From Deltaproteobacteria bacterium (lineage in GTDB: Bacteria > Desulfobacterota > DSM-4660 > Desulfatiglandales > HGW-15), in NCBI GenBank assembly GCA_016931115.1, contig JAFGFM010000080.1, positions 7,577 through 71,576 of the forward strand: DNA of 64,000 nucleotides, in the 5' to 3' direction. The notes under the pieces were generated by a model. That model had not been told where the DNA came from, searched no databases, and saw only the letters and a program-made list of their open reading frames with translations. Position 1 is the first letter of the stretch, and each line of letters starts with the position of its first letter. The position numbers and the translations under genes were made by a program. Shown here in pieces: positions 1 to 8,346 of this stretch.

Positions 1-302
1 CAGATGAATTCGGGCAATATCTAACAAATGAGTATTTGCAGAAACTCTTTTATGAAGTCCGCGAAAAATTTAGTGCATTAAGTAGCGAGATTCTTGAGAA
101 AATCAATCAACAATATATAAGCCTCAAATATAAAGGGAGAACTGCTCTAACAATCTATGTAACAAGGAAAAGGATGGATTTGGAACATTACGATCAAGAG
201 AGCAATTGGGTAACTACGCAGATAACTGAAGAAACACAGTTTGATTGTGAAGAATTTATTAACAATCAGAGAAAGGTATTAGAGGATTGGGACGCAGAAT
301 AA
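1..302 (+). CDS. 5'-truncated CDS; C-terminal part resembles a DUF5655-like domain
   Basis: The frame is open back to the window edge (DEFGQYLTNEYLQKLF...). LFYEVREKFSALSSEILEK...YISLK is reminiscent of DUF5655; recognised by eye only. Confidence 0.45.
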   Translation, partial: DEFGQYLTNEYLQKLFYEVREKFSALSSEILEKINQQYISLKYKGRTALTIYVTRKRMDLEHYDQESNWVTTQITEETQFDCEEFINNQRKVLEDWDAE

Positions 303-520
303 AGCTAATAATCACAAAAACCAGTGGGTGCGAAAAGCCGGAGACCAAGACGCTCTTTAGAAATTAAATTGAAATAAAATTATAAAAGAGAGTCCAGCTC
401 TCACACTAGATTCAACCGATGCTGAGGATGCAGCGATAATTGGTACTAAAAAATTCGTAGATGTTCATCTTATATGATAATAGGAGTGACATCCAACAAT
501 GCAAATGAGAGACCATAGGT

Positions 521-591
521 TTATCAGACCGGTGCAGTTGGCTGAAATAATTTTATGACTTGAGATAGTAAAAATTGTGTAGGTCTGATAA
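521..591. repeat. ~70-bp hairpin repeat, copy A
   Basis: ttatcagacc (521-530) and ggtctgataa (582-591) are perfect inverted arms. Aligns ungapped to copy B at 45/66 nt. Preceded by catagg and followed by taaagggttt. Confidence 0.8.
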
Positions 592-633
592 TCATATAAA
601 GGGTTTATTATAAAAAACAAGATATCAGAAGCT

Positions 634-651
634 GTGAATCACTTGTTAAAC
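634..651 (+). mobile_element. attC-like right half (L' GTGAAT, 5 nt, R' GTTAAAC) at the start of the SIR2 cassette
   Basis: GTT core lies 29 nt before the SIR2 ATG. GTTA matches the inverse core (ATGTAAC) after SIR2. A possible matching left half (ATTCAAC, 410-416) lies ~220 bp upstream. Confidence 0.4.
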
Positions 652-673
652 AAAAGAAGAAAGGGAAGGCATA

Positions 674-1789
674 ATGTCTGATTCTTTCAATAATGACAAG
701 AACGTGTATTTACTTGGAGCAGGCTTTTCAAAAGAAATTGGTCTTCCTTTGCAAGATGATTTTTTACTGGTTGCAAAAGAAGTTTTTTTTAAGCGCACTG
801 GTCAGTATAAACATTTCCAGAGAGTGTTCGAATACCAAGATAAACTTACCAAAATGAAAAAATACCTAAACTATCCTCTCTTGAACCTTGAACACCTTTT
901 CAACCTCATCGAAATGGATTTCTTCTATTCCCAGGACTCGGCTATTTTACAAATCAAGAATGACTTTACTAGATTGATCTGTGATGTGCTTATAGACAGA
1001 ACACCCTGTCCCTTCTACCATGACGCTTCCGGTCATTTACGAATTGATGACTCCAAGTTTCAAACGTACCTTTCATTTATAAGTCTCTTCATAAAGGATG
1101 ATAAGCATAAAGTTGTCATGCATGACGACACCATCATTAGCTTTAATTACGACCTCGTGCTTGAAGGAGCGGCTAGTATCTACAACTGGAAACGAGACGA
1201 GAGGCGTCTAGACGGATATACAACAAAACCAAGAAATGATTCCTTTCTATTTAATACGACCTTTGGGAAAACAAACATCGTTGTGGAGGATGTTGGTCAG
1301 TATTTCAAGAAGAACATGTCAAATCCTTATTTCCCATCTCTTGAGCTATACTCGGAAAATGATGGCTCTTTGAAGCTTCTTAAACTCCACGGTTCCATCA
1401 ATTGGACACCTGCAGATGACCACACCAAGACATTTATCGTTCCTCCCACTTGGAATAAGTCCGACCCCGAAATTAGGGTGCTGTGGGATAAAGCGTATAA
1501 GGAGCTAATGACTGCAAAACGAATCATAGTTATTGGTTATTCCTTCCCTGAAACAGATATCTATGTAAAAAGCCTTTTGGGGCTGGCTCTTAATGAAAAC
1601 CAAATTCTCCAGAATATCTACTTCATCAACCCAGACCGCGATGTCGCAAAAAGGATGTGTCTTTCTTTACTCGACAGGTATTTTGAAAAGTACTGCGAAT
1701 ACAAAGAGTGGAAATTATCGGAATTTATAGATTCTAACGAAGGCAAGCAGTTCATAAAACACCACCTAAACAGAGAGGTAACGGCGTAA
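674..1789 (+). CDS. SIR2-like (SIR2_2 family) NAD+-dependent/NADase protein, stand-alone
   Basis: Motifs LLGAGFS, ISFNYD, LLKLHGSINW, IVPPTWNK, IIVIGYSFPETD. Purine-rich RBS (agggaagg). Confidence 0.9.
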   Translation: MSDSFNNDKNVYLLGAGFSKEIGLPLQDDFLLVAKEVFFKRTGQYKHFQRVFEYQDKLTKMKKYLNYPLLNLEHLFNLIEMDFFYSQDSAILQIKNDFTRLICDVLIDRTPCPFYHDASGHLRIDDSKFQTYLSFISLFIKDDKHKVVMHDDTIISFNYDLVLEGAASIYNWKRDERRLDGYTTKPRNDSFLFNTTFGKTNIVVEDVGQYFKKNMSNPYFPSLELYSENDGSLKLLKLHGSINWTPADDHTKTFIVPPTWNKSDPEIRVLWDKAYKELMTAKRIIVIGYSFPETDIYVKSLLGLALNENQILQNIYFINPDRDVAKRMCLSLLDRYFEKYCEYKEWKLSEFIDSNEGKQFIKHHLNREVTA

Positions 1790-1796
1790 AAGGTCG

Positions 1797-1853
1797 ATGT
1801 AACAAATTAATCTAGACAACTCGTTACACTGGCGACTGATTTTATCGTTGACA
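1797..1853 (+). mobile_element. integron attC-like recombination site (57 bp)
   Basis: R'' ATGTAAC, 5 nt, L'' AATCTAG, 20 nt, L' CTGATT, 5 nt, R' GTTGACA. L''/L' pair with one extra base. Begins 8 nt after the SIR2 stop and ends 10 nt before the next ATG. Confidence 0.75.
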
Positions 1854-1862
1854 AAAAATAAG

Positions 1863-2561
1863 ATGGAAATAGTGTTTAAGGCAAATACTGTTCAAGAGTA
1901 TAAGAAACTACTTTTAGATGCAGATTTTCGAGTACCTGAAAGGAGTGATGGACGAACGAAAGATGATGTAGAAAAATATGATTTATCTCATCTTTTACTT
2001 TGCCTTATGCAATGCGACCTACTCACATTTCCGCTTGAGCTCATTCATCGTAATCGTCCTGACTTCCTACTTGTTATGGGGAACAAAAGTATTGGAATTG
2101 AACATACTGAAGCAATTCATCAGAATATTGCTCATAAGGAATTTCTAATGGACCAAAATAACGGTCCAAGCACTTGGTTTATATCTCCTATTTCACCAAA
2201 TGATCTGTCGAAGAGTAAGAAAGAGTTAATGAAAGAAATTCAAGAGAACGCTCATGGTGATGGATGGTGGGGAGATTCTCCTGAAATTTCTTGGAAGGAA
2301 GTAATGCTTCATTTTATCCAGAAAAAGCTTAGTATCGCGCAAAAAGTTGGATATGAAAAATTTGATGAAAATTGGCTTCTCATTTACAATAACTGGAGTT
2401 TACCATCACTAAATATCTATGGGGTAATTCCAACATTTTTTCAGGAAGTCAAGAACTCTGGGGCTTTAAAAGAATTCGATCGGATTTTTATCACTAAAGA
2501 CAAAGAGTTTTGTGATATTTCGAGCACTGGAGTAACTGTACACAATGTTGACAATTTATAA
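1863..2561 (+). CDS. putative PD-(D/E)xK restriction-endonuclease-fold protein
   Basis: RPDFLLVMGNKSIGIEHTE motif. ATG 1863 is preferred over TTG 1848, which lies inside the attC R' box. Confidence 0.6.
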   Translation: MEIVFKANTVQEYKKLLLDADFRVPERSDGRTKDDVEKYDLSHLLLCLMQCDLLTFPLELIHRNRPDFLLVMGNKSIGIEHTEAIHQNIAHKEFLMDQNNGPSTWFISPISPNDLSKSKKELMKEIQENAHGDGWWGDSPEISWKEVMLHFIQKKLSIAQKVGYEKFDENWLLIYNNWSLPSLNIYGVIPTFFQEVKNSGALKEFDRIFITKDKEFCDISSTGVTVHNVDNL

Positions 2562-2562
2562 A

Positions 2563-2581
2563 TACCAACAATCGCATTAAC
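2563..2581 (+). mobile_element. attC-like left half (R'' TACCAAC, 5 nt, L'' CATTAAC), right half missing
   Basis: Starts 2 nt after the stop codon. CAAC is complementary to the GTTG at the start of this cassette (1847). Followed by unrelated purine-rich sequence. Confidence 0.5.
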
Positions 2582-2715
2582 TCAAAAGGGGAAAGATAGG
2601 GTCTGGGAAAGATCAGTCCTTGACAACGGACATTACTGAAAAAGACAATCATCGTTCAAGTAGATATTACAAGACAAAAGTAGTAACTTTAGATAATGTA
2701 CAGAAGTGAGGTGAA

Positions 2716-2783
2716 TGTCAGATCTACACAGTTGATATGCCTAAGTATATGGCTTACGAAGGTGTCATTGTGTATGTCTAACA
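2716..2783. repeat. ~70-bp hairpin repeat, copy C
   Basis: tgtcagatctacacagttga...gtcattgtgtatgtctaaca. Same core as copies A, B and D with a 1-nt deletion. Confidence 0.8.
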
Positions 2784-2864
2784 CTAAACGTTTCTGAACA
2801 TTTTACTGACCCTGAATTTTATGTACAACAATATAAACAGATATTCAAAAGAGGAGAGACAATA

Positions 2865-3380
2865 ATGAATAATTTCACAAACCGATTTAAGACTTTGCTT
2901 GCCCTGATTTGTTTTACATTATTTTGCAGCTCTATTGCTCAGGCAGAAGAAATGACTCTCGAAACCTTGATCGATCGTCAGAAGGTGCAGGATTTAATTA
3001 CCCGCTATTACTTCAACTTCGGTGGGACGCCTGAAAGTTTTGCAAACTTTTATGTGGATAATGGTGAGCTGATTCTGATCGGTCAGCATTATAAGGGTAG
3101 AGAGGCTATTGCCAAAGCTTATAACTTTCCTGAGGGTGAAGCACCCAAGAATTTTTCATTCAATAGTCTTATCAGTAATTTACTCATTACGGTGAAAGGT
3201 GATACCGCCAGGGCGAAACTGGTGTGGACTGAGAATGTGATGCAAAAAGAAAGGGGTGAGATACAGCTGCCCGCTCAGGGTCGGGAGTACTCCACTTTCG
3301 TTAAAATAAAAGGTAAGTGGATGTATCTTACTCGCGAAATCAAAGGAGGAACAGAGCCGCCAGAGGGTTGGGAGAAGTAG
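2865..3380 (+). CDS. secreted SnoaL-like/NTF2-fold protein
   Basis: Signal peptide (...SSIAQA). LIDRQKVQDLITRYY and GREAI motifs. RBS gaggag. Confidence 0.8.
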   Translation: MNNFTNRFKTLLALICFTLFCSSIAQAEEMTLETLIDRQKVQDLITRYYFNFGGTPESFANFYVDNGELILIGQHYKGREAIAKAYNFPEGEAPKNFSFNSLISNLLITVKGDTARAKLVWTENVMQKERGEIQLPAQGREYSTFVKIKGKWMYLTREIKGGTEPPEGWEK

Positions 3381-3423
3381 AGTAACAAATAAGACACTCA
3401 CCTTCTTTACTGCAACGTTATGT
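3380..3423 (+). mobile_element. collapsed attC-like remnant
   Basis: GAGTAAC at the stop codon and GTTATGT 44 bp later. Too short for an intact attC, and the L boxes do not pair well. Confidence 0.3.
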
Positions 3424-3449
3424 TTCTGGTAAAAGCTTGAAAGAGCATA

Positions 3450-3522
3450 GGTATCAGGCCTACACAGTTGGCTGGCTTAAGCTTATGGTTTGGGAAGGTG
3501 TCAATTATGTAGTACTGATACC
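3450..3522. repeat. ~70-bp hairpin repeat, copy B
   Basis: ggtatcaggcctacacagttg...caattatgtagtactgatacc. Long imperfect palindrome. Confidence 0.85.
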
Positions 3523-3559
3523 AAAGGATTTACTCTTTTTACTTTTTTGCGAGGATGCT

Positions 3560-5764
3560 ATGAGCTTGAAATGCACGATTGGAATGCACCAGTGGACTGG
3601 TTGCAGATGCTCGAAATGCGGAAAGACTCGGGATGAGGCCCACGACTGGTTATCGGATTGCGAGAAGTGCAGTGTGTGCGGCAAAATAAGGGCAAGCGCA
3701 CATGACTGGAACGGCTGCAAGTGTCAGAAGTGCGGAAAGATAAGAGACGAAGGACATGATTGGGACAAAGATTGTGAGACCTGCGGGCGATGTAACCTTA
3801 AAAGATCGAACAAGCACAATTGGATCGATCTTGAATGTTCTATCTGTGGTCAAATATGGCCCAGCAGGCGAGGGCACATTCTGGCTCTTTTAAAATTATG
3901 TCATCAAGATAAACAGGCTGCAGTTGAAAAATGTCTGGTTGCCATATCCGGCAGAACCTATATCCCTGAAAAAACTGCTTTGCATCTCCTGGGAATACTT
4001 AAAGATGACAAGGCGATTGAACCACTTGCAAAATATCTCGCTGACCTGAAGCCCTTTTCGGAATGTGCAATCAAATCATTATCTATGTTTGGCGTCGATG
4101 CGGTTGATTCTTTATTACGTAATATGCCCACCGCAGGTTCTATTGGCGGTCGCCGCAGGCTTTTCGAAGCATTATGCAAAGTTAGTTCCGTTTCCATTGA
4201 CCGTCTTGCAGGGGAGTTGACCAATAGACAATATTGTCAAATTGTCGCAAAAGCTTTGGGCCAATCAGGCGATCGGCGGGCAATCAATCCGTTGTTTGAA
4301 GCCCTTAAAACAAGCTACTTTTCTCGCTCCGAAGAGCGAGAAGGCGCCATTTCGGCTCTTTTACAACTGGAAGCTTACGAAGAATTGCTTTTACTTTTGC
4401 ATGATGCAAATGGCAGCTTGGATACTATGGTGGCATGGGCACTGGGAAACCTGGGCGACAAGCGCGCATTAGAGCCTTTACTTGAGGCATTGGAAAAGAC
4501 AAAACCTGGCAGTTATGAACGTCGTACAGTAATTAAAGCGTTGGGTAATATTCGAGACCCGCGTGCGACAGAACCCTTGTTAAAAATACTTAATGAAACA
4601 GATATGTCTATCCGTCGAGATACTATCATAGCTCTTTCAAAAAGCGCGGATGGACGAGCAGTCCCGGCACTGCGTGATACGATAGAAAATTTATCAGTGG
4701 ACGAACTGGAAGCCCATAAATACGCTGAAATGGGATTAGTGCGCCTGGGAAATCCTGATTTCATGAAATCATTAATTAGTATGCTATCTGTTAATTCAAG
4801 CAATTACGACATTTTACTGGAAGTATTTAGATACAATAAAGATGTTCTTGTAAACGCCGTCGTGGCTATGCTTGAACTCTCGAAGGAAGAAACTTCCTAT
4901 AGTGGCTATGAAAAAACAGCGGCTACTTATAACCGTCTCACCTGCCTGGAGTTGCTGGATAGAATAAAAGAGCCAGGGAGTGTTAATCCTCTGTTAATCG
5001 TGCTTATGGATGATCCCCATTATGAAGTCAGGGCCATGGCCGCGAAAACCTTGGGTAGGATCAGGGATAAGCGAGCGATTCTCTCTCTGATAAGGGCAAT
5101 TCAAGACACAGACTCCATTGTTCGGAAAGAGGCAGCCATTGCACTTGGAGAGATTGCGGATGCTCAGGCAGTTGAACCACTAGTCCATACACTCAAAGAT
5201 TCCCAAGAAGAAGTCAGCGCAGCAGCAGTCGAAGCTCTCGGTAATATCGGAGACATTCGAGCAATGGAACCTTTAACCAGTTTTATACAAGACTCATCGG
5301 GTTTACCGAACATGAAAAAAGCTTTGTATTGTGCCGCTGTGTCACTTGCAAAACTTGGTGCAGCAAAGCAATTAATATTATGGCTGGAAACTCCGAATGA
5401 AAATCTCTGCGAATACGCCATTATAGGTTTGACAAGCTTAGAAGATGCAGAAGCAGTACAGCCGTTAACGCGCTATTTGGAGGATAGTTCAAAACTTTCC
5501 AGGAACAGAGCGTTAGCTGCTACAGCCTTGGGAAATAAAGGTTTGACAGCCGTTGATCCTTTGGGTGAGGCGCTTAAAAATAAATCGAGAGAAATAAGAG
5601 AATCTGCAATAGTGGCACTCGGGAATCTTGGATGGTCTGCAATCGAACCTTTTTTATTAAACACCGAAGACAGAGATTTAGATGATCGTTGCGGTTGGGA
5701 AGCTTGGGAGAAGCTGTCTGAAGATTTAGAGATTTACCTCATGCAAGGGCATAGGCAGGCCTAA
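3560..5764 (+). CDS. HEAT/PBS-lyase repeat protein with N-terminal Cys/His-rich (HxW..CxxCG) repeats
   Basis: Repeated HDW..C.KCGK.RD units, then many ALG.IGD.RA.EPL repeats. ATG 3560 has a gagga RBS. The extension from 3437 is a translation of repeat B. Confidence 0.85.
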   Translation: MSLKCTIGMHQWTGCRCSKCGKTRDEAHDWLSDCEKCSVCGKIRASAHDWNGCKCQKCGKIRDEGHDWDKDCETCGRCNLKRSNKHNWIDLECSICGQIWPSRRGHILALLKLCHQDKQAAVEKCLVAISGRTYIPEKTALHLLGILKDDKAIEPLAKYLADLKPFSECAIKSLSMFGVDAVDSLLRNMPTAGSIGGRRRLFEALCKVSSVSIDRLAGELTNRQYCQIVAKALGQSGDRRAINPLFEALKTSYFSRSEEREGAISALLQLEAYEELLLLLHDANGSLDTMVAWALGNLGDKRALEPLLEALEKTKPGSYERRTVIKALGNIRDPRATEPLLKILNETDMSIRRDTIIALSKSADGRAVPALRDTIENLSVDELEAHKYAEMGLVRLGNPDFMKSLISMLSVNSSNYDILLEVFRYNKDVLVNAVVAMLELSKEETSYSGYEKTAATYNRLTCLELLDRIKEPGSVNPLLIVLMDDPHYEVRAMAAKTLGRIRDKRAILSLIRAIQDTDSIVRKEAAIALGEIADAQAVEPLVHTLKDSQEEVSAAAVEALGNIGDIRAMEPLTSFIQDSSGLPNMKKALYCAAVSLAKLGAAKQLILWLETPNENLCEYAIIGLTSLEDAEAVQPLTRYLEDSSKLSRNRALAATALGNKGLTAVDPLGEALKNKSREIRESAIVALGNLGWSAIEPFLLNTEDRDLDDRCGWEAWEKLSEDLEIYLMQGHRQA

Positions 5765-5807
5765 ACAGTTGACAGGCCTGAGCTTATGGCTTAAGAAGGT
5801 ATCAATT
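5749..5807. repeat. ~70-bp hairpin repeat, copy D (right arm truncated)
   Basis: gcataggcaggcctaaacagttgacaggcctgagcttatggcttaagaaggtatcaatt. 43/52 identical to copy B. Contains the TAA stop of the HEAT gene. Confidence 0.8.
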
Positions 5808-5879
5808 CTAAAGGGTGGTTTCTTTTTGGATTGTGATGAAATGTTGTTAATCAACCTATAACAGGTAAGGAGATATAAA

Positions 5880-6296
5880 ATGTTGTATCATGACTTAAAA
5901 GAAGACTTGAAAGAATCTATGAAAGCAAAAAATATGGATAGAGTAAATGCCATACGGGTTATTATGGGTGAATTTCCAAGACTTAATAAATTAGCCGGTG
6001 AACTTCCTACAGACGATGAAGTATTGAAGATATTGAAAGGTCTTAAGAAGAATGAAGAATTGGTACTGGAAAAATTAAATAAAACTGAATCAGTATATCT
6101 TAATGTTATAGAAGGTTATCTGCCTAAAATGATGTCCAAAGAAGAAATTAAGGCCTTCATTCTTTCATCAGGCATTAATTTAAAGGGTGGTGAAAATATA
6201 GGGCAAATAACAGGAAAGCTAATGAAAGATTTAAAAGGAAAAGCTGAAGGCAGCCTGGTAAAAGAGGTATTAACTGAAATGATGAAAGAGGGTTAA
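5880..6296 (+). CDS. GatB/YqeY domain protein
   Basis: DLKESMKAKNMDRVNAIR...YLPKMMSKEEI. RBS aaggag. Confidence 0.85.
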   Translation: MLYHDLKEDLKESMKAKNMDRVNAIRVIMGEFPRLNKLAGELPTDDEVLKILKGLKKNEELVLEKLNKTESVYLNVIEGYLPKMMSKEEIKAFILSSGINLKGGENIGQITGKLMKDLKGKAEGSLVKEVLTEMMKEG

Positions 6297-8218
6297 TGCT
6301 GTTTCACCCATTTTTCCACCACCTTGTATGGATAGGCCTCCAGCCTGCTAAACCCTGGCAGGTTTTTGGCTTTATATTCAACCAGTCTGGGAGAAGAAAT
6401 GCCGCATAAAAAACGTGTTATCAGGGTTACCATATCAAATGAATTTGTTTGCCCCACCGCATCAATAAGGGGTTTAACCATGGCATGAAAATCCGGATGG
6501 TTTAGTGGTGGCAGCTCTGATGACTCCATTCTGATAGCTTTTTTCTCCAGGCAGACCGAACACCTCCCGCAGCCATTATCCAGCCTTTCACCAAAATAGG
6601 CTGAAAGATTTTTAGCCAGACACTGGTCAGACTCAAAAAGGTCAATCATGGCATGCAGGCGCGCCACATCCTTTTGCTCCTTTTCTATAAACAGCGCTGC
6701 AATCTCCTTTGCAATCGAGTCTAGATCAAATCTGGAATTGATTATCTCAAAAACCTCCACACCAGATGATGGTCTGAGGACAATCCACCCTTTCTCATGA
6801 AAATAATCCAGGGCTGTTAAAACCCGCTGCCTGTCAAAGCCTGACTCGGCCACAATATTATCTATATCCACCTTTGCCCATGTCTTGGCGAGCCTGGAAT
6901 TATCCAGTATGGTTTTAACAAACTGTTTCCTTTCACCATTAAAATTTGCCTGAATCTGTTCGCCGGGCACCAGATACTGGAATGAATAATTTTCAAAATA
7001 GATATATTTGGGGGAAATAATATTCGCCATCTCAAGATAAACCAGAAGGGTTTTTAAGGGCAGCAGCCTGATATCTGTCCTCATGCTCAGGGAATGTTCC
7101 CTAACCTCAAACAGCTTTTCCTTGGATTGTGATATTTCCTCCAGCACCTTGCGGATATTCGCAAGGCCTGGCGTGTCACCATAGGCAAAATTCTCAAGTA
7201 CAGGTATGTGGTTTTTATTTCCCAGCAGGCAGCAGAGAGAAGGCATTCCATCCCTGCCTGCCCTGCCTATCTCCTGGCTGTAGCTCTCTATAGATTTTGG
7301 CAGGTCATAGTGGATAACCTTTCTGATATCCTCTTTATCTATTCCCATGCCAAAGGCGATGGTTGCTACAACGATACCTGTTTCTCCTCTCATAAAACGG
7401 GTTTGAACAGCATCCCGCTCCGCATTTTCCATACCGGCATGATAGGCCTCTGCCTTAAGTCCATGCTCTTTAAGCATAAGGGCTATGCGATCCGCTGTCT
7501 TCTGAAGTGTAACATAGACGATTGCGGGGCCATCAGGCTTTTCTGCAAGTATATCGCAAAGCACGGCCTCTTTATTTTCTTCCGCCACAGGACGTATGCG
7601 TAAAAATAGATTTTTCCTGTAAAAACCTGTTTGCGCCACATTTTCCAGGTTGATTGCAAACTTTTCACACATGTCGAGGATAACCTTTGGCGTTGCCGTG
7701 GCTGTGAGTAACAGGACCTTATTAATACCATATTCTTTCTGATATATGGGGATCTTCAGGTAATCGGGTCTGAAATTGTGGCCCCATTCAGATATACAGT
7801 GGGCCTCATCAACAACAAGCAGGGATATATTCATCTGTTTGAGCTGGGTTCTGAACCTTTCATTCTTAAATCGTTCAACAGCAACCATCAGTATCTTGAG
7901 TTGACCTGATCGGGCTGCTGCAATTGTATTGCGATAATCAGCATCGCTCATGCCTGAATCAAGTTTTGCCGCGGCAATATCCTTTGATTTTAAAAAATCT
8001 ATCTGGTCTTTCATCAGGGAGAGAAGCGGTGAGACTACCAGGGTCATGCCCTGTTCAATAACAGCAGGTAGCTGATAACAAAGAGATTTTCCTGCGCCTG
8101 TAGGGAAGATTGATGCAGCAGACTTACCTGCTATGATGGCCTCTATAACCTCTCTCTGACCGGGTTTAAATTTATCAAAACCAAACACCCTCTTTAATGT
8201 ATCATCAATTACAGACAT
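6293..8218 (-). CDS. RecQ-family ATP-dependent DNA helicase
   Basis: FKPGQREVI, PTGAGKSLCYQ, VDEAHCISEWGHNFRPDY, QEIGRAGRDG, C-terminal CGRCSVC. ATG 8218 is preferred; the ORF extends to 8287. Confidence 0.93.
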   Translation of the reverse strand: MSVIDDTLKRVFGFDKFKPGQREVIEAIIAGKSAASIFPTGAGKSLCYQLPAVIEQGMTLVVSPLLSLMKDQIDFLKSKDIAAAKLDSGMSDADYRNTIAAARSGQLKILMVAVERFKNERFRTQLKQMNISLLVVDEAHCISEWGHNFRPDYLKIPIYQKEYGINKVLLLTATATPKVILDMCEKFAINLENVAQTGFYRKNLFLRIRPVAEENKEAVLCDILAEKPDGPAIVYVTLQKTADRIALMLKEHGLKAEAYHAGMENAERDAVQTRFMRGETGIVVATIAFGMGIDKEDIRKVIHYDLPKSIESYSQEIGRAGRDGMPSLCCLLGNKNHIPVLENFAYGDTPGLANIRKVLEEISQSKEKLFEVREHSLSMRTDIRLLPLKTLLVYLEMANIISPKYIYFENYSFQYLVPGEQIQANFNGERKQFVKTILDNSRLAKTWAKVDIDNIVAESGFDRQRVLTALDYFHEKGWIVLRPSSGVEVFEIINSRFDLDSIAKEIAALFIEKEQKDVARLHAMIDLFESDQCLAKNLSAYFGERLDNGCGRCSVCLEKKAIRMESSELPPLNHPDFHAMVKPLIDAVGQTNSFDMVTLITRFLCGISSPRLVEYKAKNLPGFSRLEAYPYKVVEKWVKQH

Positions 8219-8346
8219 TTTTTTCTCATCCAAAATGGGATACCTCTCTTCATAAATGGTCTTTGTATGATTAAAAAATATGGACAATTGTTAACTCAGA
8301 TAATATAGCCTAATATAAAGTATAAAAAAAAGGAAAATTATAAAAA

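Follow-up and report, generated by a model that had tools for sequence, protein, structure and literature searches.

Are the SIR2-family gene and the putative nuclease gene that follow one another near the start of a 64,000-nt stretch of a Deltaproteobacteria bacterium genome (GenBank assembly GCA_016931115.1, contig JAFGFM010000080.1) former integron cassettes, or are they an ordinary gene pair? The whole of this stretch, here called the window, corresponds to G000:C119:7577-71576, part of a 96-kb contig (C119) in an assembly of 5.18 Mb and 240 contigs (G000, the source genome), whose closest relatives are uncultured Desulfatiglans metagenome-assembled genomes; coordinates are window positions unless they carry a genome:contig prefix, and other G numbers denote sister genomes. 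An earlier note on this DNA had read 398-3423 as cassettes delimited by attC recombination sites with no integrase in view, that is, a cluster of attC sites lacking integron-integrases (CALIN) or the tail of an integron. Our comparisons point, with a probability of roughly 0.7, to two adjacent, co-oriented ex-integron cassettes at 646-1847 and 1848 to ~2582, now a fixed remnant without an integrase in cis. Cassette 1 would comprise the SIR2 gene and its own short degenerate attC, and cassette 2 the nuclease-like gene and a truncated attC of which the R''-spacer-L'' part survives. The arrangement as such is of an ordinary, already known kind. The features concerned are as follows (ORF, open reading frame).

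645..651, plus strand: R' box GTTAAAC, 5' boundary of the putative SIR2 cassette with the crossover at G|TT; similarity to the metagenome contig L083 starts here.
674..1789, plus strand: SIR2_2-family ORF of 371 aa (Pfam PF13289, 25.9 bits), the presumed cargo of cassette 1.
1797..1853, plus strand: 57-nt site, putatively the degenerate attC that belongs to the SIR2 cassette, with R'' at 1797-1803, L'' at 1809-1815, L' at 1836-1841 and R' at 1847-1853.
1863..2561, plus strand: 232-aa ORF, the presumed cargo of cassette 2, with a possible TTG start at 1848; PD-(D/E)xK-like by a motif read by eye.
2563..2581, plus strand: what is putatively left of cassette 2's 3' attC, namely R'' TACCAAC, spacer AATCG and L''-like CATTAAC, without the L'-R' half.

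The limits of the first unit emerged from comparison with its homologues. The SIR2 ORF, which matches the PADLOC SIR2 and Aga_SIR2 models with values down to 1.8e-11, has over 1300 homologues, most of them ~365-aa stand-alone proteins. One of them (74% aa identity) is carried by L083, where similarity to the window begins at GTT-645, spans the ORF plus the 3' site and stops at GTT-1847. The three 20-nt blocks preceding 645 are identical at 4-6 of 20 positions, while the first following block agrees at 11 of 20, and from there the alignment continues with one 2-nt gap. The site at 1797-1853 matches that behind the L083 SIR2 gene at 38 of 51 positions, without gaps from GTAAC to GTT and with an equal 43-nt spacing, and past GTT-1847 identity falls to 17/50. 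This identity, and the break at its end, support the proposal that the SIR2 cassette has its attC, now decayed, at 1797-1853. A second homologue, P0051 (68% aa), lies on L085 between GCCTAAC...GTTAGGC-type sites that are canonical attCs by eye. They are not scored by either of two home-made covariance models derived from related genomes (R1, built from 19 attCs of the G010 integron, with R and L helices backed by covariation; R2, broader, with 47 attCs and box regions only), and a further attC downstream reaches 30.7 bits. The genes that come after SIR2 homologues are unrelated ones.

The second unit is bounded in the same manner. The 232-aa ORF had no match in Pfam, PADLOC or NCBIfam, and its family is rare (43 proteins). 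Its closest homologue, P0002 (65% aa, ~75% nt), is encoded on L079 (ENA ERZ27315652 k141_254601) as a cassette between canonical attCs, the upstream one reading GCATAAC-CAGCA-TTTTGGAGCC...GGCTCAAAA-TGAAC-GTTGGCA and the downstream one TGCCAAC-AAGCG-GTTGAAG...CTTAACCGCGGC-GTTATAG (L079 attCs at 3187-3251, 4930-4993 and 5701-5779, the last scoring 19 bits with R1). Identity between L079 and the window is 16/60 before GTT-1847 and 36/60 after it (14/20, 12/20 and 10/20 by block), and GTTGACA at 1847 aligns with the canonical R' GTTGGCA of L079. At the other end, 2563-2581 aligns with TGCCAAC-AAGCG-GTTGAAG, the start of L079:5701-5779; similarity to L079 ends there, and the window lacks the remainder of that attC beyond R''-spacer-L''. 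A long attC behind the nuclease-like gene (2560-2666) was considered and dropped, no hairpin being predicted. The upstream neighbours of the nuclease homologues show no relation to SIR2; the SIR2 and nuclease-like genes thus travel separately.

Because the L083 and L079 comparisons are independent and break at the same G|TT (1847), they bear the signature of integron cassettes rather than an operon spacer. The mobile unit runs from the G|TT of one R' box to that of the next, with breakpoints at 645 and 1847 relative to L083 and at 1847 and ~2582 relative to L079, and homologous genes stand within attC arrays in L079 (three attCs) and L085. The earlier note's view of both genes as integron-type cassettes, with limits at GTT-645, GTT-1847 and the R'' at 2563-2569, thus agrees with the homology breakpoints. 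It had further relied on cross-matching cassette ends (GTTA at 645 with TAAC ending at 1803, GTTG at 1847 with CAAC ending at 2569). These letters are read as reported, and 645, 1847 and 2569 are validated by the homologous units; 4-nt matches are trivial as such. A split attC with halves at 398-416 and 634-651 finds no support: its L boxes fail to pair, and within 303-640 no AAC comes with an L box complementary to the L' that precedes 645 (at best 5/7; 3/7 for AAC-414). GTT-645 is nonetheless a real boundary.

Considerable evidence weighs on the other side, most of it from the 57-nt site judged by itself, which taken alone is no more than chance. Its letters (ATGTAAC-AAATT-AATC[T]AG-(20 nt)-CTGATT-TTATC-GTTGACA) and boxes are exactly as had been described, and it shows the attC order R''-L''...L'-R' with ~5-nt spacers and a bulged L'' base. 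A scan for this geometry (AAC, 5-nt spacer, 6-nt L box with one bulge, L' complement, 5-nt spacer, GTT; 50-150 nt overall) found four instances in the window, compared with 2.8 ± 1.8 in first-order Markov resamples and 2.9 per 64 kb across the genome, and the other three had better R-box pairing. The bottom strand, whose folding had been suggested as a check, folds weakly (-6.4 kcal/mol over 1790-1860, z = -1.4; -3.7 kcal/mol over 1795-1855) and did not form the attC hairpin shape. R1, with filters off, reported nothing in window 1-8000 at E<=10; applied to 251 nt alone it placed 1795-1855 in the correct register at 8.4 bits, and R2 did not list 1797-1853 at E<=10 (score <10.3 bits). The site therefore has neither covariance-model recognition nor a stable imperfect hairpin, and with no listed match it fails the test that the earlier note had itself named as refuting. 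The homologues add to this: L083 contained no other attC and no integrase, so its SIR2 unit may also be a relic, and the remoter nuclease homologues (L131, L132, L080) lie outside cassettes.

The site differs in several respects from the attCs of a classical integron. In the G010 integron (G010:C4, ~2.910-2.934 Mb), an intI gene faces an array of canonical attCs whose consecutive ends cross-match. Box order, spacing and the AAC/GTT triplets at 1797-1853 resemble these attCs. Their R boxes pair at 5-7/7, L'' bulges with a C, the stems are long and rich in G+C, and they score 20-51 bits; the R boxes of the window site pair at AAC/GTT only (3/7), the bulge is a T, and the centre is not self-complementary and provides no inner stem. 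R1 recovered held-out attCs in arrays of G002, G005 and G023, and both models are only moderately sensitive: the silence of R1 and R2 weighs little either way because the obviously canonical L079:4930-4993 gets only 10.8 bits. We had initially favoured chance alone on the basis of geometry counts, folding and R1, and revised this after the homologue comparisons. Given a true R' at 1847, the prior for an AAC upstream, with spacers of 5 nt and an L box that matches 6/6 and has one bulged base, is roughly 0.002, as estimated from the geometry counts.

The remnant resembles CALINs and single attC sites, in IntegronFinder terms, in that an ORF is followed by an attC in R''-L''...L'-R' order with boundaries at G|TT. 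It also resembles them and defence-gene cassettes, such as those of sedentary chromosomal integrons (bioRxiv 10.1101/2024.07.02.601686), in its co-oriented ORFs, defence-like cargo (SIR2, putative nuclease), lack of an integrase in cis and homologues in real arrays. Unlike a CALIN, it has one complete site, which is below model detection, a second site that is half deleted, and a setting in a non-integron hotspot. The label CALIN is operationally inapplicable since fewer than two attCs are detectable: the definition asks for at least two within a few kb and no intI, and here we found one sub-threshold full site and one half site. The homology breakpoints, the cassette status of homologues, the lack of intI on the contig and the match of repeat-A arms (below) to TIRYT ends are observed; from them we infer an integrase-mediated origin, present inactivity and the following order of events. 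IntI would have excised and inserted the cassettes in some array by recombination at the G|TT of R' boxes; they may then have arrived in the hotspot via integrase at a secondary site, or by recombination along with flanking DNA. Their attC function would subsequently have been lost, through point decay at the first site and deletion at the second, and decay has probably left the sites unable to recombine with any efficiency. Hairpin elements described below would have colonised the intergenic spaces independently. The remnant and a NucS-like gene now lie inside a ~3.5-kb G000-specific insertion in a variable hotspot between a hicB-like gene and snoaL/yqeY of this Desulfatiglans-like genome.

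These observations leave the current understanding of integrons unchanged. They illustrate the fate and decay of integron cassettes outside integrons in an uncultured sulfate-reducer lineage, show that comparison of homologous units can recover ex-cassettes missed by attC models, and single out two candidates for single-gene defence cassettes, a stand-alone SIR2 protein and a rare nuclease-like protein of 232 aa.

The spaces around the two genes contain a second kind of element, repeat A, a copy of which had been placed within the split attC. Its copies in the window and two others in G000 are as follows (TIR, terminal inverted repeat).

515..597, plus strand: repeat A copy 1, an imperfect 83-nt palindrome with arms matching the 28-nt TIRs of G019:C101.
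2710..2786, plus strand: copy 2; G003 and G004 have it at the orthologous position, and G006 and G007 retain a stub.
3450..3522, plus strand: copy 3, common to G006 and absent in G003, G004 and G007.
5751..5812, plus strand: copy 4, left arm intact and right arm degenerate.
G000:C182:20016-20095 and G000:C148:78493-78574: other copies in G000.

Repeat A is an imperfect palindrome of ~80 nt, present in G000 as six full copies and ~15 solo arms, (C)ATAGGTGTCAGGCCTACACA(A/G)TTGACAG; its 16-mer core occurs in 8/10 congeneric genomes, and the reversed control gave almost no matches. It is not an attC because the site is 'inside-out', with GTT on the 5' arm and AAT/AAC on the 3' arm, adjacent to the loop. 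Judged on its sequence, it is a derivative resembling miniature inverted-repeat transposable elements (MITEs) and REP doublets forming hairpins (REPINs), made of the two TIRs of an element encoding a tyrosine transposase associated with terminal inverted repeats (TIRYT; a Y1/HUH transposase with a DnaA_C helix-turn-helix). This agrees with the TIRYT class as published, subclass 2.1 TnpA_REP with Bac_DnaA_C/HTH tails and with TIRs that begin GGGG[AT][CG]A[CG] (Quentin et al. 2018, PMC6006769). On G019:C101, a 327-aa Y1_Tnp + Bac_DnaA_C gene is flanked by inverted ATAGGTGTCAGGCCTACACAGTTGACAG, which is the repeat-A 28-mer, and the arms of repeat A are thus identical to TIRs flanking a Y1_Tnp(+HTH) gene; they begin GG(T/G)GTCAG, which is close to the published TIRYT motif. 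Homologues of this transposase in G010 (G010:C1) and on G000:C11 bear variant TIRs (GGGGTCAGACCTTCATTATTGACAG; TTTATCAAGTCTGCYTTTGACTCTTG), and no intact cognate transposase with exact repeat-A TIRs was found in G000. As in REPINs, repeat A is short, lacks an ORF and forms a hairpin; unlike its TIRYT and REPIN relatives, it has a low copy number, a conserved 28-nt loop, and copies that cluster at accessory-module borders. A previously unrecognised hairpin of this locus is thereby identified as a TIRYT-derived MITE.

Three other explanations of the repeat were discarded. As TIR of a classical insertion sequence (IS), the arm lacks a neighbouring transposase beside 13 copies in G000; a tie to the sole IS91/Y2 fragment and an Xer-like pseudogene on C168 is a single case; and TTGACA of the arm as a -35 box had no consistent -10 by eye and no promoter excess. 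Nor was an excess of promoters or terminators seen, and an Rfam search of window 1-7000 returned no match. The plus-strand RNA fold of repeat A is usually stabler than that of the minus strand because of G:U pairs, and the repeat may have an additional RNA-level role (terminator or stabiliser). Its loop, AAGCTTATGGCTT, is conserved between genomes. On G000:C11 (1-1110), an intact 326-aa Y1_Tnp + Bac_DnaA_C (TIRYT) gene has its stop codon inside the right 26-nt TIR, and its left flank shares homology with the C182 repeat-A copy's right flank. On L079 (3255-3670), repeat-A/TIRYT arms lie ~10 nt downstream of an attC R' box.

Gene order from hicB to yqeY varies among the sister genomes (REPA denotes repeat A): hicB-snoaL-yqeY in G007, REPA-hicB-REPA-snoaL-yqeY in G003, REPA'-137 aa-REPA-224 aa-REPA-snoaL-yqeY in G004, hicB-snoaL-REPA-273 aa-yqeY in G006, and hicB-[NucS-like-REPA1-SIR2-nuclease]-REPA2-snoaL-REPA3-[HEAT]-REPA4'-yqeY in G000. 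Repeat A is polymorphic at the hicB-snoaL junction, with a full copy in G003, 21 nt in G006 and 13 nt in G007; its insertion ends gave no clean empty site, and G006 and G007 look like deletions. The snoaL gene is conserved beside yqeY in G002, G003, G004, G006 and G007 and, on this synteny, is a resident gene of the locus and not a cassette, which removes the stretch up to 3423 from the cassettes claimed before. No attC was found after it; 3381-3423 had been a candidate and was rejected, being too short at 44 nt, without L pairing, and next to a resident gene.

Three other accounts of the locus were weighed against a pair of former cassettes. The SIR2 and nuclease-like genes could be a two-gene defence operon with no integron history, in which 1797-1853 would be a plain spacer of coincidental geometry. 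The chance-level frequency of that geometry, its R1 score and weak fold are in keeping with this, as is an intergenic gap of just 73 nt, but GTT-1847 is the exact point at which homology to two different foreign units breaks off, the closest nuclease homologue comes after an unrelated gene and a canonical attC, and SIR2 homologues have unrelated genes next downstream; we regard an operon as unlikely. That the genes belong to an active CALIN, as the end of a still-living array of cassettes running on upstream of base 1, is very unlikely. The genes from NucS-like through HEAT are indeed co-oriented and the genome does have an intI (G000:C146:5147-6625; TIGR02249, 369 bits), the only one in G000, whose contig ends at the intI stop codon. 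However, the 7.5 kb upstream of the window on C119 (peptidase M3, metallopeptidase, a mazEF-like pair, S9 peptidase and the hicB-like gene) has genes on both strands and is collinear with G003 and G006, which contradicts the supposed continuation of the array; C119 has no attC match, the single complete attC is very weak, and the SnoaL gene is resident.

The third account, that the TIRYT/repeat-A system moves the hotspot modules, either as a MITE-flanked composite element or with the hairpins as recombination sites, seems rather improbable. Co-oriented repeat-A copies do separate co-oriented variable genes in G000, G003, G004 and G006, solo arms lie downstream of co-oriented accessory genes genome-wide, pairs of arms share right flanks, and a deletion in G006 has its junction within the arm core CACAAT|TG. 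Yet no target duplication was seen, the one intact TIRYT gene in G000 has different TIRs, and the breakpoints at 645 and 1847 are of attC type, not repeat-A type. Movement of the genes by the repeats cannot be shown because, between filled G000 and empty G004, the HEAT insertion ends 65 nt before and 27 nt after the repeats and not at their tips. A broader proposal, that TIRYT hairpins border a second, integron-independent shuffling system for accessory and defence genes with the Y1/HUH + DnaA_C enzyme as recombinase, is likewise improbable; it draws on co-oriented ORFs split by co-oriented TIR-derived sites in four Desulfatiglans genomes, on repeat-A sites inside the real integron array of L079, and on similar GGGGTCA...TTGACA motifs between co-oriented defence-like genes on the unrelated L087. 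Two decayed, formerly integron-borne cassettes remain our preferred interpretation.

On L087 (GCA_004196315.1 SDBT01001843.1, 620-8570), the co-oriented defence-like run consists of Mrr_cat, NucS, ThsB_TIR and DUF5655, and its genes are separated by GGGGTCA...CCATTAAAGGGCACCTGTC / GGGGTCAAATCTT..TTGACA motifs resembling TIRYT TIRs; no attC occurs there. In the window, the HEAT gene and the repeats on either side of it (3385-5836) form an insertion specific to G000 when compared with G003, G004 and G007, the empty site being GTAGAGT|GAAAAATTATTAATCAACC, and G006 bears a different 273-aa gene at that place.

Concerning integron components elsewhere in these genomes, the absence of an integrase from view was confirmed for the entire 96-kb contig, TIGR02249 being above its cut-off on C146 only, and the cassettes thus do not form a complete integron, which would have an intI bearing the IntI-specific insertion, and an attI, beside the array. 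R1 over the whole G000 genome detected two attCs, on C228 and C20, and none on C119; a geometric-plus-folding scan added clear attCs on C62 and C84. Isolated canonical-looking attCs in G000 are C20:15009-15077(-), C62:19734-19796(-), C62:1409-1485(+), C84:13809-13862(-) and C228:1052-1117(-). The intI homologues above the TIGR02249 cut-off on G000:C146, G007:C24, G019:C46, G008:C383, G003:C177 and G009:C226 have an N-terminal extension of ~130-180 aa and sit nearly always at a contig end; beside the three examined (G000, G007 and G019), no attCs were detected. The first cassettes of the G010 integron (L023 15860-16500, G010:C4) include two copies of a ~320-nt non-coding cassette with the palindrome TTTACAAAAATTGGCAAGATTGCCAAAAGTTGTAAA, and a palindrome resembling it lies upstream of the G000 intI (G000:C146:4801-4840). 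On L079 (1-2441), the cassette array abuts three tandem Xer-like tyrosine recombinases, none of which reaches the IntI cut-off.

The first 6.3 kb of the window carries the end of the NucS-like gene, SIR2_2, the 232-aa ORF, SnoaL_4, the CxxC/HEAT-repeat gene and yqeY, all on the plus strand, and the neighbours of the two cassettes are as follows.

3..302, plus strand: 3' end of the NucS-like gene (271 aa, start upstream of the window; PF01939 in homologues).
2865..3380, plus strand: SnoaL_4 protein with a signal peptide (Pfam match).
3560..5764, plus strand: CxxC/HEAT-repeat protein gene.
5880..6296, plus strand: yqeY.
6293..8287, minus strand: recQ-like gene, next after yqeY on the opposite strand.

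The NucS-like gene is part of the ~3.5-kb G000-specific insertion and is missing at the orthologous site of G003, G006 and G007. It was also considered as a cassette and set aside, its nearest homologue being only 46% identical and having no attC around it. At G000:C119:6857-7073 (719-503 nt upstream of window base 1) a conserved non-coding module extends over ~200 nt and contains a palindrome as well as a sigma-70-like TTGATA-17-TATCAT. The module stands before different cargo ORFs in G000 (NucS-like) and G004 (twice), has a copy in G007, and may be a portable promoter or leader.

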